This document shows, in pieces, positions 5,483 through 40,449 of a DNA stretch of 44,032 nt. The translations under genes were made by a program, and so were the position numbers. Origin of the DNA: a virus (Duplodnaviria > Heunggongvirae > Uroviricota > Caudoviricetes); IMG/VR virus record IMGVR_UViG_2740892015_000005, positions 1-44,032 of that record; one strand, written 5' to 3'. Below the pieces are notes generated by a model. It searched no databases and was not told where the DNA came from. It saw only the letters and a program-made list of their open reading frames with translations. Position 1 is the first letter of the stretch; every line of letters starts with the position of its first letter.

Positions 5483-5827
5483 TTAGTCCTTGCGTAGCTC
5501 GCTGATTCTTCTGTAAGTCTCTGGTGCTTTGTTACCGTACGTCTTCATTTCAGACTTCAACAGAGCAACGAGGGAATCCCATTCGTTGAGGATGCCTTTG
5601 AATGCCGGAACGCGCTTTGCAACCTTGTCGAATGAATCTCTGATTTCTGGAATCTGCTCAACAAGTGCAACGCATCGTCGGAAATCGGCTGCGTCATGTG
5701 GAGCGCCGAAGTGATGACCATAGATATTCTTTTTCAGTCCACATGCGATTGAGGCAAGAGTTGCGCTACTGATGCCAACATCGCCAGTTGATTGCCATTT
5801 CAAAACCTTCATAGCCAAATCTGACAT
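5483..5827 (-). CDS. Hypothetical phage protein (114 aa)
   Basis: ORF with GGAGA Shine-Dalgarno before the ATG at 5827, in the integrase-proximal accessory region. No recognisable motifs. Confidence 0.5.
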   Translation of the reverse strand: MSDLAMKVLKWQSTGDVGISSATLASIACGLKKNIYGHHFGAPHDAADFRRCVALVEQIPEIRDSFDKVAKRVPAFKGILNEWDSLVALLKSEMKTYGNKAPETYRRISELRKD

Positions 5828-5840
5828 TTCTTGTCTCCAA

Positions 5841-5868
5841 TAAAAAAACCGCCATCAGGCGGCTTGGT
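5841..5868 (-). terminator. Rho-independent terminator (minus strand)
   Basis: Minus-strand reading GCCGCCTGATGGCGG hairpin followed by TTTTTTT. It overlaps the stop codon of the 55-aa ORF. Confidence 0.5.
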
Positions 5869-6022
5869 GTTCTTTCAGTTCTTCAATTCGAATATTGGTT
5901 ACGTCTGCATGCGCTATCTGCGCCCATATCATCCAGTGGTTATAGCAGTCGTTGATGTCCTCTGCTTCGATAACTCTGTTGAATGGTTCTCCATTCCATT
6001 CACCTGTGACTCGGAAGTGCAT
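5855..6022 (-). CDS. Small hypothetical protein (55 aa)
   Basis: ATG preceded by GGAGATGATAA; translation MHFRVTGEWNGEPFNRVIEAEDINDCYNHW.... It is below the 60-aa cutoff of the ORF track. Confidence 0.35.
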   Translation of the reverse strand: MHFRVTGEWNGEPFNRVIEAEDINDCYNHWMIWAQIAHADVTNIRIEELKEHQAA

Positions 6023-6110
6023 TTATCATCTCCATAAAACAAAACTCGCCGTAGCGAGTTCAGATAAAAGAAATCCCCGCGAGTGCGAGGATAGTTACTT
6101 GTTCATATTA

Positions 6111-19455: not shown

Positions 19456-19640
19456 ACGCCACAATTCAAACGATACCAGAGCTTCTTATCCAGACACGAG
19501 GCAATCAGACCGAAGTGGCGAGGATGCTTTCCTGCGCAAGAGGAACAGTGCTCAAGTACAACCGAGACAGCAAAGGCGAGCGTCACGTAATAGTTAACGG
19601 CGTCCTGATGGTCAAACAGGGCAAGAGGGGAAGACGATGA
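19452..19640 (+). CDS. ninH: NinH-like protein
   Basis: IPELLIQTRGNQTEVARMLSCARGTVLKY...VLMV resembles lambda NinH (IPDMLVEAYGNQTEVARRLKCSRGTVRKY). Confidence 0.65.
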   Translation: MNATIQTIPELLIQTRGNQTEVARMLSCARGTVLKYNRDSKGERHVIVNGVLMVKQGKRGRR

Positions 19641-20155
19641 GTATAAGAGAACTAAACCTCACCAAAGAACAGCACGATTGGCTGAATGGCTGGCTTGAAC
19701 TGTGGGGCGCATGGGTTTATTCAGGCCGCCTGGAAAAGCGCATGAGCAGCGTAATAGCGAAGTTCATGGAGAGCGTAGAGCCGGGAAGAGTTATGACAAG
19801 GCCAATGTGTAATGATGATGATGGAATGTTGATTTCTCAGGTCGTCGATTCCGTGATGTACATTGACAAGAAAGCCTTTGGCATCCTCCTCAGCTACTAC
19901 GCTCATGGTTCATCTAAGCGAGCAATTGCATCCTACTATCACGCGACTGCAAAGCCACGCAAGATGTGTGGGCGTGGTGGCGAGGGATGGAGAAAACCTT
20001 CACTGGCAACCTGTAGAAACGAAATTGACGATATCCTGAAAGCGTCATTATTTGTTTTGTACCAACCAATGCAAAATGCTTTCAAAATGCGTAAACGTGT
20101 TGAGAAAGTTAAGCATGTTGCTGTTAAAAGCCTTGACATGCAATTAGCCATTTAG
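19637..20155 (+). CDS. Q: Late antitermination protein Q (phage 82 type)
   Basis: Position immediately upstream of the PR'/tR' elements and the lysis cassette. N-terminal LELWGAWV-type motif and cysteine cluster as in Q proteins I recall. Confidence 0.65.
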   Translation: MSIRELNLTKEQHDWLNGWLELWGAWVYSGRLEKRMSSVIAKFMESVEPGRVMTRPMCNDDDGMLISQVVDSVMYIDKKAFGILLSYYAHGSSKRAIASYYHATAKPRKMCGRGGEGWRKPSLATCRNEIDDILKASLFVLYQPMQNAFKMRKRVEKVKHVAVKSLDMQLAI

Positions 20156-20162
20156 CCATAAT
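20133..20162 (+). promoter_or_regulatory. Putative late promoter PR'
   Basis: TTGACA, 17-18-nt spacer, CATAAT overlapping the Q stop codon; about 50 nt upstream of the tR' hairpin. Confidence 0.45.
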
Positions 20163-20202
20163 ATTCACATATGCTGCTGCTTTTGTATTCAGCAACCATC
20201 AC

Positions 20203-20228
20203 AAGCCCACCTCCTGTGGGCTTTTTTG
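20203..20228 (+). terminator. tR'-like terminator (Q antitermination target)
   Basis: AAGCCCAC-CTCCT-GTGGGCTT hairpin followed by TTTTTT, directly downstream of PR'. Confidence 0.6.
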
Positions 20229-20349
20229 CATTCGCGTGCAATCAAAACAAGAGTCTTAGTGATATGGGCCTGAGATATGGTGGTGGAAACATCGCTCCGC
20301 TCTTGGCTGTCATATCTACGCGAACAGGCTCTATCCCTAAGGTAAAGCG

Positions 20350-20862
20350 ATGAAAGAAATAAAATTAACGCCAGAAATGGTGCTTTCTGTTGTTGATTAC
20401 AATCCATCATCAGGCGACTTTCACTGGAGATGGAGGCAGGGGAGAGAGAGGACCACTTTGACATGGAACTCTCGTTTTGCTTTCAAGAAATGCTCATCAA
20501 TAAATTCTGATGGGTATTTAATGATTATGATTAATGGTAAAGCATACCCTGCTCACAGACTGGCATGGTTGATTGTTTATGGCACCATGCCCGATGGTTT
20601 TATTGATCACATCAACAGGGTAAGAACAGATAACCGGATATCAAATCTTCGTCTTGTCACTCATTCCGAAAATATGCAAAACAGGAAAATTCAGAAGAAT
20701 AATAAATCTGGATACCGTGGCGTGTCTTGGGATGCTAAGTACGGGAAATGGAGAGCAAGAATTAATGCGTCTGGAAAGTGTATTAACCTTGGATACCATG
20801 ACACTGCCGAACTTGCCGCTGCGGCTTTTGAGGCAGCCAGAATGAAATATCATACCGTTTAA
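20350..20862 (+). CDS. HNH homing endonuclease (HNH plus AP2-like domain) in the late leader
   Basis: AHRLAWLIVYG...IDHINRVRTDNRISNLRLVT (HNH) and GYRGVSWDAKYGKWRARI (AP2-like). Paralogous to the ORF at 15941..16552; AT-rich. Confidence 0.8.
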   Translation: MKEIKLTPEMVLSVVDYNPSSGDFHWRWRQGRERTTLTWNSRFAFKKCSSINSDGYLMIMINGKAYPAHRLAWLIVYGTMPDGFIDHINRVRTDNRISNLRLVTHSENMQNRKIQKNNKSGYRGVSWDAKYGKWRARINASGKCINLGYHDTAELAAAAFEAARMKYHTV

Positions 20863-21429
20863 AGATGTAAGCTGCCGTTAGTGACTCTTAAGTTGCAACG
20901 GTGGCTTTTTTGTTTGCACAACAGGTAAGAGCATTGAACCCGCAGACCTCGCGGAATTGGTGAAAGGTGCCGCGCAGTACTCTTATCGTTGTGGTGAATA
21001 CGCAGGCTGATGCGTTAATCAGGTGAACGAGACACCCGCCGGTCCGTGATATGGCACACCGTGCCGGTCATATCTGCCGCGGTTAGGTTTACGAGGATTT
21101 CGTAAAGCTGGTCTAGGGTGAAGCCGTGAAAGCGGAGGAAGTAAAACGAGGCGTCGGTACACGCCTATCGTCATTAAGTCGGAGTTCAGCACCGACCGCC
21201 ACAACCCAAACTGAGCCGTAGCCACTGGCTGTCCTGAATTCATCAGTGATAGTTATGCTGCGGCCTTCTACACATGACCTTCGTGAAAGCGGGTGGCATG
21301 AGGTTGCGCTAACAACCTCATGCCGTTTTGCCCGTGCATATCGGTCACGAACAAATCTGATTACTAAACACAGTAGCCTGGATTTGTTCTATCAGTAATC
21401 GACCTTATTCCTAATTAAATAGAGCAAAT

Positions 21430-21443
21430 CCCCTTATTGGGGG
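21430..21443 (+). promoter_or_regulatory. Stem-loop overlapping the S ribosome-binding site (sdi-like translational control element)
   Basis: CCCC-TTATT-GGGG hairpin immediately 5' of the tandem starts ATGAAGATG of S, as in lambda S107/S105 dual-start regulation. Confidence 0.45.
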
Positions 21444-21449
21444 TAAGAC

Positions 21450-21773
21450 ATGAAGATGCCAGAAAAACATGACCTGTTAGCCGCCATTCTCGCGGCAAAG
21501 GAACAAGGCATCGGAGCAATCCTTGCGTTTGCAATGGCGTACCTTCGCGGCAGATATAATGGCGGTGCGTTTACAAAAACAGTAATCGACGCAACGATGT
21601 GCGCCATTATCGCCTGGTTCATTCGTGACCTTCTCGACTTCGCCGGACTAAGTAGCAATCTCGCTTATATAACGAGCGTGTTCATCGGCTACATCGGTAC
21701 TGACTCGATTGGTTCGCTTATCAAACGCTTCGCTGCTAAAAAAGCCGGAGTAGAAGATGGTGGAAATCAATAA
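21450..21773 (+). CDS. S: Holin S (class I, dual start)
   Basis: Sequence [62 protein letters not shown]... is essentially lambda S as I recall it. Confidence 0.9.
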
Positions 21774-22233
21774 TCAACGTAAGGCGTTCCTCGATATGCT
21801 GGCGTGGTCAGAGGGAACAGATAACGGACGACAGAAAACCAGAAATCATGGTTATGACGTCATTGTTGGCGGAGAGCTATTCACTGATTACTCCGATCAC
21901 CCTCGCAAAGTTGTCACGCTAAACCCCAAACTCAAATCAACAGCGGCCGGACGTTACCAGCTTCTTTCCCGTTGGTGGGATGCCTATCGTAAGCAGCTTG
22001 GCCTGAAAGATTTCTCTCCGAAAAGCCAGGACGCTGTGGCATTGCAACAGATTAAGGAACGTGGCGCTTTACCGATGATTGACCGCGGTGATATTCGTCA
22101 GGCAATCGACCGTTGCAGCAATATCTGGGCTTCACTGCCGGGCGCTGGTTATGGTCAGTTCGAGCATAAGGCTGACAGCCTGATTGCAAAATTCAAAGAA
22201 GCAGGCGGAACGGTCAGAGAGATTGAGGTATGA
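21757..22233 (+). CDS. R: Endolysin R (lytic transglycosylase)
   Basis: [51 protein letters not shown]... is essentially lambda R as I recall it. Confidence 0.9.
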
Positions 22234-22667
22234 GCAGAGTAACCGCGATTATCTCCGCTCTGGTTATCTGCATCATCGTCTGCCTGTCATGGGCTGTTAA
22301 TCATTACCGTGATAACGCCATGACCTACAAAGAGCAGCGCGATAAAGCCACATCCATCATCGCTGACATGCAGAAGCGTCAACGTGATGTAGCAGAACTC
22401 GACGCCAGATACACAAAGGAGCTTGCTGATGCTAACGCGACTATCGAAAGTCTCCGTGCTGATGTTTCTGCTGGGCGTAAGCGCCTGCAAGTCGCCGCCA
22501 CCTGTGCAAAGTCAACGACCGGAGCCAGCGGCATGGGCGATGGAGAAAGCCCAGGACTTACAGCAGATGCTGAACTCAATTATTACCGTCTCCGAAGCGG
22601 AATCGACAGGATAACCGCGCAGGTTAACTACCTGCAGGAATACATCAGGACGCAATGCCTTCGATGA
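22230..22667 (+). CDS. Rz: Spanin inner-membrane subunit Rz
   Basis: N-terminal transmembrane helix ([18 protein letters not shown]) plus coiled coil; position after R. Confidence 0.8.
22423..22614 (+). CDS. Rz1: Spanin outer-membrane lipoprotein Rz1 (embedded in Rz, +1 frame)
   Basis: Signal peptide with lipobox VSAC and a proline-rich mature region ([16 protein letters not shown]), wholly within Rz. The exact start is uncertain. Confidence 0.6.
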
Positions 22668-22821
22668 TAGCGATAATTTTACTCATCATCCTTCACATCT
22701 GGCTCTGTAGACAGGGTGGTGATCACTTCTGGAGTAAATCCAGATTAAACATCTCATTGCTGATGCTTGATATTGAGCATCTGGCGCGCTGTAAGGGGCT
22801 GCGTTGAGATAAGAGCCAGTT

Positions 22822-22863
22822 CATTACAAAGCCCATCTACGGGTGGGCTTGATAATGAAACCG
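22822..22863. repeat. Hairpin-containing repeat element, copy A (TTACAAA-stem-loop-TTGATAATG)
   Basis: TTACAAAGCCCA-tctacggg-TGGGCTTGATAATG; a second copy lies at 23484..23528. Confidence 0.4.
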
Positions 22864-23104
22864 TGATTTACATCCCTCACAATCCAGGTATGTAAAAGCT
22901 GGATCATGCGAGAACGGATTTAACTAAATCTGTGCACCACCAGTTACGGCAGTACAGCGAAACAACCCAAGCCAGTAAGTGGGGAAATAACACTGGCAGC
23001 CACTGAAAGATGAACCTCCTGCCTTATGGCAAAAAAGATTCTTTGTGGTGGCGGACTGATGGAAAGACATCCTAATCAAGCAACCACTCCACAGGGTCAT
23101 AATT

Positions 23105-23485
23105 ATGAACGACCAGCAAATCGAAAAAGAAATCGTTGAGAAAGGCAAAACGGCACCGCGAATCACCCCGCAGCACATCGAAGACGTGATTAAAAGCGAG
23201 CATTACTTTACTGCTTATGATGGACGTAATGGTGCCATTTCCAGCAACGAATATTGTGGCAGAGAAAAACCAGAAGAAGGCGATCGTGATTTATCACCAT
23301 TGAAGTTGCTCACTTTCTGCGTACTGGTGCTGAAGAATGGCTTCACCGTCACCGGAGAGAGCGCCTGTGCAAGCCCGGAAAACTTTGATGCAGAAATTGG
23401 TCGGAAGATTGCCCGGCAGAATGCTGTAAACAAAATCTGGATGCTCGAAGGTTACTTGCTGAAGCAGAAGCTAAGCGAACAGTAG
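23105..23485 (+). CDS. Hypothetical phage protein (126 aa) between lysis and packaging genes
   Basis: ORF bracketed by the two hairpin repeat copies. Any family assignment (for example N15 Gp49-like) would be speculative. Confidence 0.45.
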   Translation: MNDQQIEKEIVEKGKTAPRITPQHIEDVIKSEHYFTAYDGRNGAISSNEYCGREKPEEGDRDLSPLKLLTFCVLVLKNGFTVTGESACASPENFDAEIGRKIARQNAVNKIWMLEGYLLKQKLSEQ

Positions 23486-23528
23486 TTATTACAAAAGCCA
23501 TTCCCTACAGAGTGGCTTTGATAATGGC
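23484..23528. repeat. Hairpin-containing repeat element, copy B
   Basis: TTACAAAAGCCA-ttccctacagag-TGGCTTTGATAATG, starting at the stop codon of the 126-aa gene. Confidence 0.4.
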
Positions 23529-23588
23529 TTATACCCTACACGGGATAACTTAACTGATATCCCTTTTAACGGATAAACGGAGCCAATA

Positions 23589-23831
23589 ATGGCAGAGATT
23601 ATTCCCATGACTGAAGAACAGAAATTCCAGTTAGAGATTTACAAGCTGGTCATGAACCAGAACGCAGCCGCAGAAGAAGCATTTCAGTTCATTGGCACTG
23701 ACGAGCTGAGGCTTGAGCTATTCAAAATTCACTTCCAGTCAGGTGGCGCTAATTCGGATATCACGATCCGCACATTTGAAGCGGTGCGTAAATCGAAGGA
23801 AGCGTTAGACCTGTTCACTACCGGAGCATAA
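23589..23831 (+). CDS. Hypothetical protein (80 aa) upstream of terminase small subunit
   Basis: ATG preceded by GGAG; stop is adjacent to the TerS start. Confidence 0.4.
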   Translation: MAEIIPMTEEQKFQLEIYKLVMNQNAAAEEAFQFIGTDELRLELFKIHFQSGGANSDITIRTFEAVRKSKEALDLFTTGA

Positions 23832-23833
23832 AC

Positions 23834-24274
23834 ATGGCGCGCCCAACAAAGTATCAAGAGGCGTACGCCGAACAGGCACGCAAACTGTGCTTGCTGGGCT
23901 ACACCGATGCAGAGCTTGCTGATTTCTTCGAAGTTAGTGAGTCAACTATTAACAAGTGGAAGCTTGATTATCCTAAGTTTTCGGAGTCCATAAAAAAGGG
24001 TAAGGCCGTCGCTGATGCAGAAGTTAGTGATCGTCTTTATCAACGCGCTATGGGCTTCGTGGCTCCAGACATCGATATTCGTGTTATTGAAAACAGAATT
24101 GTCGAAACTCCGCTTGAGAAGTATTACCCGCCTGATACAACCGCCGCCATCTTCTGGCTTAAGAACCGACAGAAGGATAAATGGCGCGACAAGGTTGATC
24201 ACGAGCTAACAGGCAAAGACGGCGGCGCAATCCAGATTGAAACATCACCGATGAGCAATCTATTCGGAAAATGA
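23834..24274 (+). CDS. Terminase small subunit
   Basis: N-terminal HTH-like region (LGYTDAELADFFEVSESTINKWK) and position directly upstream of, and overlapping, the large terminase gene. Confidence 0.7.
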   Translation: MARPTKYQEAYAEQARKLCLLGYTDAELADFFEVSESTINKWKLDYPKFSESIKKGKAVADAEVSDRLYQRAMGFVAPDIDIRVIENRIVETPLEKYYPPDTTAAIFWLKNRQKDKWRDKVDHELTGKDGGAIQIETSPMSNLFGK

Positions 24275-40236: not shown

Positions 40237-40383
40237 ATGAAAGTTAAGACATTAAGGATGCCAGAATGGCTGGAAAAGGCTTTGGAGCAGTCCGCGAAAA
40301 AGGATGATCGGTCGTTCAGTAATGAGGTATTGAGGAGACTAAAGGAGTCAGTAGCTAAGGATGGAATTGTTTGTCCAGAATGA
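40237..40383 (+). CDS. arc: Arc-like ribbon-helix-helix repressor (48 aa)
   Basis: AAGGAG Shine-Dalgarno; MKVKTLRMPEWLEKALEQSAKKDDRSFSNEVLRRLKE fits the Arc RHH pattern (compare P22 Arc ...PQFNLRWPREVLDLVRKVAEENGRSVNSEIYQRV). Below the ORF-track size cutoff. Confidence 0.6.
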   Translation: MKVKTLRMPEWLEKALEQSAKKDDRSFSNEVLRRLKESVAKDGIVCPE

Positions 40384-40449
40384 GTAAAGCCCAAGCTATT
40401 GCGAGTAGCTCGGGCTTAAATCGCCAGTAAATTTTGAGGAAAAACTGAC

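Follow-up and report, generated by a model that had tools for sequence, protein, structure and literature searches.

Intra-operon stem-loops and terminators are recognised in the late operons of P22-like phages, where their role has been stated as unknown (PMC8022706). Among the lambdoid phages, such stem-loops occur after P22 gene 5, where the P22 record carries a putative stem_loop feature, and in HK97 and lambda, and intra-operon terminators have been predicted in phage L. The hairpins described in this study are like them in lying 3' of a gene within a long antiterminated transcript, and in one of their contexts they directly follow the gene for the major tail protein. Whereas the known late-operon stem-loops are individual and mutually unrelated structures, the hairpins reported here share an invariant base, a fixed CA/GA loop and the lack of a U-tract, and recur in different genera, behind many genes that are unrelated to each other. 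As read from sequence, they are best regarded as a well-defined form of the late-operon stem-loops and of the conserved intergenic motifs found at mosaic joints. We found no description of this hairpin family in the literature. It offers a concrete candidate for the question of what stem-loops do inside P22-like late operons (PMC8022706).

On the recombination side, the closest described analogue appears to be the promoter-early stem-loops (PeSLs) of T4-type phages (Arbiol et al. 2010, PMC2839356; Comeau et al. 2014, PMC4122927). PeSLs are conserved intergenic motifs in hyperplastic regions of non-essential genes, and recombination between their copies leads to insertion, deletion and replacement of cassettes. 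The hairpins resemble them in these respects, and a conserved intergenic motif at the joints of indels and replacements is what we observed for the type represented by hairpin A of our locus. However, a PeSL consists of a strong sigma-70 promoter and a terminator that works effectively, and each genome has many of them, whereas our hairpins have no canonical terminator (nor was a strong sigma-70 early promoter found for either element) and number only one or two per phage genome. Their repetition is across the phage population, unlike the within-genome repetition of PeSLs. The lambdoid boundary sequences (bsq) of the Sf6 and CUS-3 records are likewise short, conserved, located at module boundaries and proposed as sites of homologous exchange, and the hairpin region is a mosaic hotspot as well. 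Nevertheless, the annotated bsq features lie elsewhere (bsq7 inside Rz in Sf6, bsq3 upstream of the holin gene in CUS-3) and are not defined by RNA structure, and neither record marks the hairpins. With a defined element of 40 bp present where the modules of a mosaic hotspot join, a regulatory RNA structure would be tied to lambdoid modular exchange, as PeSLs do in T4-type phages.

The locus and the fold of its two hairpins

The window, by which we mean the whole 44,032-nt stretch of DNA analysed, is of the Sf6-like prophage type (P22-like, Lederbergvirus), and the hairpin region falls within its late operon (Table 1). The operon runs from the Q antiterminator gene through an HNH-AP2 gene, the holin, lysozyme and Rz genes and a 50-aa ORF to the hairpin region, followed by the DUF2560 gene, the small and large terminase genes and the portal gene. 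Positions 22600-23900 share 97.6% DNA identity with Shigella phage Sf6, in which the 126-aa gene of this region is named 'gene 66'. The 50-aa ORF matches no Pfam family.

Table 1. Coordinates of the hairpin region and its operon neighbours in the window
Feature	Position	Strand	Basis or remark
Q antiterminator gene	19637..20155		
Rz gene	22230..22667		
50-aa ORF, homologue of Sf6 gene 65, overlapping the end of Rz	22655..22807	+	Sf6 record annotation; precedes hairpin A
Hairpin A	22820..22859	+	Lower stem 22820-22826/22853-22859; upper stem 22829-22837/22842-22850
Hairpin A, internal loop CA/GA	22827-22828/22851-22852	+	Fold; apical loop UACG
Nearly invariant noncoding core of ~135 nt, separating hairpin A from the gene 66 cassette	22940..23071	+	Alignment of 10 phages
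Gene 66 leader, cassette-specific	23072..23104	+	Left mosaic joint 23071/23072
Gene 66, 126 aa, Gp49/Sf6-gene-66 family (Phage_gp49_66), the cargo	23105..23485	+	Pfam PF13876, E = 3.4e-35
Hairpin B	23484..23529	+	Lower stem 23484-23491/23522-23529; upper stem 23494-23503/23510-23519
Hairpin B, internal loop CA/GA	23492-23493/23520-23521	+	Fold; apical loop of 6 nt
DUF2560 gene leader, conserved	23530..23588	+	Preceded by an A-, B- or C-type hairpin, depending on the phage
DUF2560 gene, homologue of P22 orf80 and HK620 hkbM, conserved right neighbour	23589..23831	+	Pfam PF10834, E = 1.4e-41
Small terminase gene	23834..24274		

The preliminary description of this DNA had noticed two copies of a roughly 40-bp hairpin element with a 7-bp stem, bracketing gene 66. 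Their presence is confirmed. The window contains two matches, and no more, to the pattern TTACAAA-N(18-32)-TTGATAATG, one at 22824-22857 and one at 23489-23526 and each on the + strand, whereas 100 dinucleotide-preserving shuffles of the window contain none. A covariance model of the family finds the same two places only, with 59.6 bits for copy A and 56.3 bits for copy B (E ~1e-10), the next-best match being the antisense of copy A at 15.9 bits. The stem, however, is not one of 7 bp, and the hairpin is more than twice as long as had been described; TTACAAA and TTGATAATG, which pair with each other, are parts of the helix rather than its flanks. The structure prediction that had been proposed as a check gives both copies a stable fold, in which an A/U-rich lower stem of 7-8 bp and an upper stem of 9-10 bp enclose a 2x2 internal loop and are capped by a loop of 4-6 nt (RNAfold). 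The predicted folding energies are -23.2 kcal/mol for A (z = -5.2 against shuffles) and -20.6 kcal/mol for B (z = -5.7), and both copies fold better on the sense than on the antisense strand.

The bracketing of gene 66 is a loose one. Hairpin B starts on the gene 66 stop codon, which its base overlaps, whereas hairpin A begins 12 nt past the stop of the 50-aa ORF and 244 nt upstream of the gene 66 start, and is assigned to that ORF. Hairpin A would then be the tag of the preceding 50-aa ORF and not of gene 66.

Downstream of hairpin A lies the noncoding core of the spacer. This core alone separates the A-type and C-type hairpins in cargo-free phages (the ST64T arrangement), type C being the homologue of hairpin B in phages that lack gene 66 (eps34, CUS-3, Sf101, P22, ST64T and HK620). 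Against the Rfam family Proteo-phage-1 the core scores 18.6 bits, below the gathering score of 42. A mini-ORF of 21 codons (23011-23076) can be read within it, although its reality is doubtful. Following the annotation of eps34, the segment 23011-23071 was considered as a fossil of the N-terminus of ST64T orf118; this idea was dropped, as the segment is conserved noncoding spacer. The 'orf118' of ST64T is an over-extended start of the DUF2560 homologue, reading through hairpin C.

Covariation and the constrained base

The pairing of the hairpin is conserved while its sequence changes. Among 82 distinct sequences, standard pairs fill 93.5% of cells, compared with 29-53% when the partners are slid, and changes on both sides of the pair (compensatory) are seen at 14 of the 17 pairs; none of 500 shuffles matches any of the observed measures. 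The common architecture consists of an A/U-rich lower stem of 5-8 bp, an invariant 2x2 loop of 5'CA and 5'GA, a covarying upper stem of 9-10 bp and a variable apical loop, for a total of ~41-45 nt. Between types B and C, three compensatory changes convert the stem AAAGCCA/TGGCTTT to GAGACCA/TGGTCTC. Further stems, among others AAGGGTA/TGCCCTT, AAGCGTCTC/GGGGCGCTT, AAGGGCGGT/ACTGCCCTT and GCAGGCA/TGCCTGT, were recovered from the IMG/VR scans and from a scan of one genome per species. The matches from the broad pattern scan of IMG/VR were for the most part A/T-rich and due to chance, and a stem filter was applied to them; a scan of viral contigs with a fixed 17-N gap yielded six loci with five distinct sequences, four of which are new stem variants. 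The sense strand is 94.4% paired and the antisense strand 82.0%, a difference that comes from G.U pairs. Folded single-stranded DNA tolerates G.T pairs as well, so that strand asymmetry alone is compatible with a hairpin at the DNA level.

The base of the hairpin does not vary. The CA/GA loop and the adjoining AUU/AAU pairs are identical in 82 of 82 sequences, including 20 without an exact match to the flank strings, and the consensus of the base is 5'-AUU(A/G)CA...GA(U/C)AAU-3'. Invariance of the flanks is partly an effect of ascertainment in the pattern-based scans, a bias of which the locus sets chosen by tail protein or by DUF2560 are free. For the tail-protein set, 80 loci were picked solely by homology to a major tail protein whose gene precedes one member of the family (phrog_853; 72-100% amino acid identity), and 79 of them could be scored, the 80th contig ending inside the element. 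In all 79 the element begins at the stop codon and the same 22 flank nucleotides are present (ATTACAAAGGG...CCCTTGATAAT), whereas identity among these loci is 72% in the centre of the hairpin and 77% over the initial 120 nt of the gene that comes next. The ribosome-binding site (RBS) of that gene follows 4-5 nt past the element. By this comparison of sequences, the base of the predicted hairpin is constrained in sequence and its top only in pairing, which argues for recognition by a specific partner. The 22 invariant basal nucleotides also exceed what a generic exonuclease barrier would need, which again points to a specific partner.

Gene context, distribution and mosaic joints

The element is located just past the ends of genes. 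A stop codon of a same-strand ORF lies within -8 to +20 nt in 38 of 57 unique instances, compared with 8.5% of random positions, and a stop of an opposite-strand ORF lies in that range in 7 of the 57. The hairpin usually starts 0-12 nt past the stop codon. The genes immediately 5' of it are diverse: they encode Rha, KilA-N, an hkbL-like 85-aa protein, Gp49-family proteins, an Rz-like spanin, the major tail protein, several ORFans, and Tad2-like proteins, which are annotated 'anti-CRISPR' in phages Huey and Louie. Immediately 3', at ~13-70 nt, are small-terminase genes of unrelated PHROGs (phrog_1482 in locus L120, phrog_1206 in L127 and phrog_309 in L061), and in other loci the DUF2560 leader or a minor tail gene. 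At L120, L127 and a third locus (L038), the RBS and ATG of terS or of the next gene are placed within 10-20 nt 3' of the element. The orientation is strict. In 73 loci picked only for DUF2560, all 119 covariance-model matches are on the gene strand and no minus-strand copy was found. The distance from the last element to the DUF2560 ATG is fixed in 62 of 66 loci, at 63 nt from the end of the search motif or, equivalently, 59 nt from the end of the full hairpin. The preliminary description had also raised an RNA-level role, in processing or stability, and such a role agrees with the sense-strand-specific G.U pairing together with the position just past stop codons.

It had further proposed a search of other prophages for the motif and for the cargo between its copies. 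The motif does recur. A-type hairpins occur in 1359 of 5426 complete E. coli genomes (25%), at one to four places in each, always in unannotated intergenic DNA and, where the context was examined, always in prophage-type surroundings. Their main position is the interval that separates the lysis genes from the terminase genes, and they are found behind a major tail gene too; in O157:H7 and O26:H11 they occupy the same lysis-terminase slot in prophages that differ in their packaging genes. The B type was found in 31 phage records, including those of P22-like podoviruses, siphoviruses (mEpX1, mEp460 and HK544), an Stx2a phage and a Klebsiella phage. Scanning one genome per species returned 41 true copies in ~35 Enterobacterales species, with Enterobacter, Xenorhabdus, Pantoea, Serratia, Morganella, Budvicia, Leclercia and Kluyvera among the genera, along with 28 stemless chance matches, mostly in unrelated taxa. 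Taken from these sequences, the copies appear to form one sense-strand RNA hairpin family in the Q-antiterminated late operons of lambdoid/P22-like temperate phages of Enterobacterales. Neither the lambda genome nor the DLP12 and Qin regions of K-12 carry a copy, and the rich transcript and RNase III data for lambda and K-12 are therefore not applicable to it.

The edges of the element coincide with mosaic joints. The flanks of A-type hairpins fall into 19 upstream and 17 downstream sequence classes, similarity from phage to phage begins or stops at the element edges, and downstream flank class 1, the DUF2560 leader, is found after hairpin classes 0, 1 and 2 (A-, B- and C-type). In eps34, CUS-3 and Sf101, similarity to the window breaks exactly after CATTACAAA, and a canonical terminator and a different gene come next. 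A 10-phage alignment places the right joint of the gene 66 unit of the window at hairpin B and its left joint at the start of the cassette-specific leader (Table 1). The left joint, GACATC/CTAAT, is common to the window, 611R6 and O26, with Emek sharing the first bases past the joint, while P22, ST64T, eps34, HK620, Louie and CUS-3 read GACATC/GGTTATT at this point and continue into hairpin C. Deletions obtained by experimental evolution of Sf6 fall in the nin region and not at the hairpin locus.

What lies between the copies is variable. For the count of architectures, 66 loci were picked only for a 99%-identical DUF2560 gene; every one of the 66 carries one or more elements, all of them on the gene strand. 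Upstream of DUF2560 there is an A-type followed by a C-type hairpin in 23 of the 66 loci, A followed by B in 18, C only in 14, B only in 7 and A only in 4. The DNA between two copies may consist of the conserved spacer only, or hold a Gp49-family gene, whose length differs among several variants (118-126 aa), or a DUF551 gene, or ORFans of 59-89 aa, or a gene for a 246-aa trypsin-like peptidase with small ORFs. In locus L015 and in O157:H7 DEC4E, an A-type hairpin is fused directly to the right flank that is normal for B or C. By its sequence this joint is the product expected of A x B/C recombination, in which the intervening DNA would have been lost. The suggestion that the elements are boundaries or recombination sites of an exchangeable cassette therefore stands as far as recurrence, variable cargo, breaks at the element edges and A x B/C joints are concerned, but there is no sign of a dedicated site-specific system.

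A proposed expression element and homology patch, and other readings

The reading that we prefer, with a probability of roughly 0.55, is that the hairpin is an intercistronic cis-acting RNA element that also provides portable homology for cassette exchange. As an RNA element, it would uncouple expression of the upstream gene from that of the downstream genes, and it may do so as a barrier to 3' exonucleases, as a site at which the transcript is processed by RNase III or RNase E, or by weak attenuation of transcription. Because the same ~40 bp stand behind many unrelated genes, they could serve as a portable homology patch for the homologous-recombination systems of phage and host, presumably those of the Red/Erf/RecA type. 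Genes with their own 3' hairpin would be gained, lost and swapped at hairpin sites, and in the window gene 66 plus hairpin B would constitute one such exchange unit, inserted between the conserved spacer and the DUF2560 leader. The fixed presence of the element behind the major tail gene, where no cassette variation is seen, favours a role in expression and makes cassette exchange look like a by-product, rather than the purpose, of a conserved expression element.

Two known kinds of hairpin are comparable to the element. REP palindromes are 3' exonuclease barriers that set differential expression within operons. Our hairpins are like REP/PU palindromes in being imperfect, ~35-45 nt long, located just past stop codons and transcribed within operons, and unlike them in being phage-borne and strictly orientation-specific, with no arrangement in BIMEs and no RAYT transposase; whereas REPs are highly repeated in a chromosome, an E. 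coli genome has our element at one to four places. Judged by eye, the hairpins show no likeness to the REP consensus. RNase III hairpins of the T7 R1.1 type and lambda sib are intercistronic helices of ~17-20 bp with an internal loop, right after a gene. After processing of this kind, the upstream message could end in a 3' hairpin that protects it. With 17-20 helix positions including the 2x2 loop, the element is at the lower size limit of the two-turn helix of RNase III.

No match to other known signals was obtained. At the gathering threshold, Rfam gave no match in the window and only a tRNA in 20 related loci; in E-value mode, the stretch 22600-23700 gave a single match that overlaps an element, b55, at the noise level of 16 bits. 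A sigma-70 promoter composed of TTACAA and GATAAT was rejected, the spacing of 21-25 nt being too wide and the promoter scan negative. Readings of the flanks as sites for CsrA (no GGA in the loops), IHF or DnaA showed no match by eye. Stimulation of stop-codon read-through or frameshifting, considered for the tail-gene context, was rejected as a general role, since behind unrelated genes the element begins at variable distances from the stop codon (-1 to +12 nt or more).

It is possible, although we consider it unlikely, that the hairpins serve accessory genes (morons) as intrinsic terminators of a weak or conditional kind. Such terminators would keep non-Q-modified transcription, such as that coming from constitutive promoters of a lysogen, out of the terminase genes, and Q-modified polymerase would read through them in lytic growth. 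In several unrelated phages, the hairpin does lie directly after genes and upstream of terS, its 5' ACAAAG and 3' CUUGAU resemble the A- and U-tracts of a bidirectional terminator, and the record of phage Ayreon labels a B-type element 'terminator'. The upper stem is G+C-rich, with 4-6 G-C pairs in 9-10 bp and a core hairpin of -8.8 to -12.2 kcal/mol. The locus is moreover a known moron site: the single copy in P22, a type C at 40309-40350 inside which the annotated 'orf25' begins, ends 8 nt before the inserted pid moron (PMC8835761). However, no U-rich tract follows the hairpins, whose tails, UUGAUAAUG and UUUGAUAAUG, have only 2-3 U after the stem, and nT is 2.06-2.78 compared with 3.8-4.5 for real terminators of the same region. 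A discriminant of the d'Aubenton-Carafa type, with the formula re-implemented, is -14 for A, -24 for B, -32 for C and -23 for the tail-gene variant, in contrast to +12 to +27 for the canonical terminators that eps34, Emek and P22 have in this region. A terminator consensus scan of the window called neither hairpin. The missing U-tract and the negative discriminant led us to reject a canonical intrinsic terminator, in agreement with the earlier remark that neither copy has a convincing T-run. Against the weak or conditional form, a canonical terminator lies immediately 5' of the element in three loci (L027, L111 and L130), intrinsic termination makes no use of the invariant lower stem or of the CA/GA loop, and strong termination would be harmful at the fixed position between the major tail gene and the next gene. 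The promoter scan also found no promoter-like site at or beside either element and no sigma-70-like promoter for gene 66.

Very unlikely, in our estimate, is a structured DNA recombination site of the attC or REP/RAYT kind, folded as single-stranded DNA, at which a recombinase or nuclease would move units of gene and hairpin. The element is indeed like an integron attC in being an imperfect palindrome directly 3' of each cassette gene, in one orientation, with conserved ends or base and a variable but paired centre; many cargos carry the same element, and some joints fall exactly at the hairpin base. Unlike attC, it ends in CATTACA/GATAATG and has no R and L core sites (RYYYAAC/GTTRRRY), its 41-45 nt compare with 57-141 nt, and only one or two copies are present per phage genome. 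No recombinase gene is associated with it in the window or in related loci, and no integrase gene lies beside the region in the window or in annotated relatives. The same element is also fixed at a non-variable, non-cassette position of the structural operon, between the major tail gene and the next gene, in 79 of 79 scored loci, which speaks against a dedicated recombination site, and ordinary homologous recombination over ~40 bp suffices for the joints. A double-stranded DNA operator, in which the inverted repeat CATTAnnAAG...CTTnnTAATG would be bound by a dimeric phage or host protein, has two conserved 10-bp half-sites (8/10 symmetric) of invariant sequence in its favour, yet it is hardly credible, as the half-sites are separated by anything from 14 to 22+ bp, covariation maintains in the centre a pairing that a duplex-DNA site does not need, the G.U pairs make the structure strand-specific, and the orientation is strictly that of the flanking genes.

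For the preferred RNA element, the invariant base (AUU-R-CA/GA-Y-AAU, with a C.A/A.G loop) may be the recognition site of a specific protein or ribonuclease that Enterobacterales or their temperate phages have in common; the same base in folded DNA could instead be an attC-like exchange site. We put this forward only tentatively, as a proposal of low probability. If the base were a protein or ribonuclease recognition site, the hairpin would amount to a module dedicated to the post-transcriptional control of late-operon and accessory genes, anti-defence genes included, and under either version it would establish phage cis-elements of a new class and provide a sequence beacon by which accessory genes can be found. 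Its importance would be smaller if the hairpin were only a generic exonuclease barrier. The motif can be used as a computational beacon for the accessory slot between lysis and packaging genes, and hairpin scans of enterobacterial prophages, in their thousands, could yield a list of candidate genes for host takeover and anti-defence. In the loci collected for this study, the slot holds genes for Rha, KilA-N, Gp49-family and Tad2-like proteins (the latter a Thoeris anti-defence domain), DUF551, a trypsin-like peptidase and many ORFans.

Genes in the lysis-terminase slot and between Q and the holin gene

The genes directly upstream of the A-type hairpin in phages Huey and Louie, both deposited as encoding an 'anti-CRISPR protein', carry a Tad2-like domain (Thoeris anti-defence 2, PF11195), which the Huey protein matches at E = 1.7e-24 and which is also present in a 159-aa homologue from locus L297. 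The lysis-terminase slot therefore houses candidate anti-defence genes. Between the Q and holin genes, the window encodes an HNH_3 + AP2-domain protein of the homing-endonuclease type, at a position that is occupied in Sf6 by tRNA-Asn and tRNA-Thr genes. ARAGORN found no tRNA genes across window positions 20000-24000.

Coordinates of features in the window and in related phage loci
Feature	Location	Description
HNH_3 + AP2 gene	window 20350-20862	170 aa
Inverted repeat	window 22867-22896	TTTACATCCCT / AGGTATGTAAA; 11-nt arms, 8-nt gap
Noncoding core	window 22940-23071	~135 nt
Mini-ORF	window 23011-23076	21 codons, within the core
Huey 'anti-CRISPR protein' gene	L003 1790-2290	directly upstream of A-type hairpin
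Louie 'anti-CRISPR protein' gene	L008 1647-2117	directly upstream of A-type hairpin
P22 'orf25'	L137 (NC_002371) 40329-40406	start within type-C hairpin loop
ST64T 'orf118'	L141 (NC_004348) 5710-6066	DUF2560 homologue; assigned upstream start reads through hairpin

The noncoding core and neighbouring motifs

Among 10 P22-like and lambdoid phages, the noncoding core between hairpin A and the gene-66 cassette is nearly invariant, although the sequence on either side is mosaic; in ST64T, this core alone separates the A and C hairpins. Its match to Rfam Proteo-phage-1 (RF03044) scored 18.6 bits, below the gathering score of 42, and the primary sequence of the 3' tail (GAAAUAACACUGGCAGCC) agrees strikingly. 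The small inverted repeat adjoining hairpin A on its downstream side is found in HK620, Louie, and O26 and is missing from other relatives. After hairpin B and before the ribosome-binding site of the DUF2560 gene, positions 23530-23579 contain four TTATCCC-like motifs of alternating orientation (TATACCC, GGGATAA, TATCCC, and GGATAAA), an array that might bind a protein or form a structure in the 5' UTR. A divergent leader, present in loci L045 and L210, differs in sequence and retains the same motif arrangement.

Variant hairpins and deposited annotations

The deposited annotations of P22 'orf25' and ST64T 'orf118' are probably both wrong. In the Siccibacter colletis locus L207 (5562-5640), a complete copy is followed at once by a tandem duplication of the element's 3' half (TTACGGTCGCCCTTGATAATGTT), a local rearrangement at the hairpin. 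Two IMG/VR loci (L133 and L134) retain intact flanks (CATTACAAAG...CTTGATAATG), but their centre, CATTTGAATACCAACCA, is unable to pair, and this variant looks like a decayed copy of the element.
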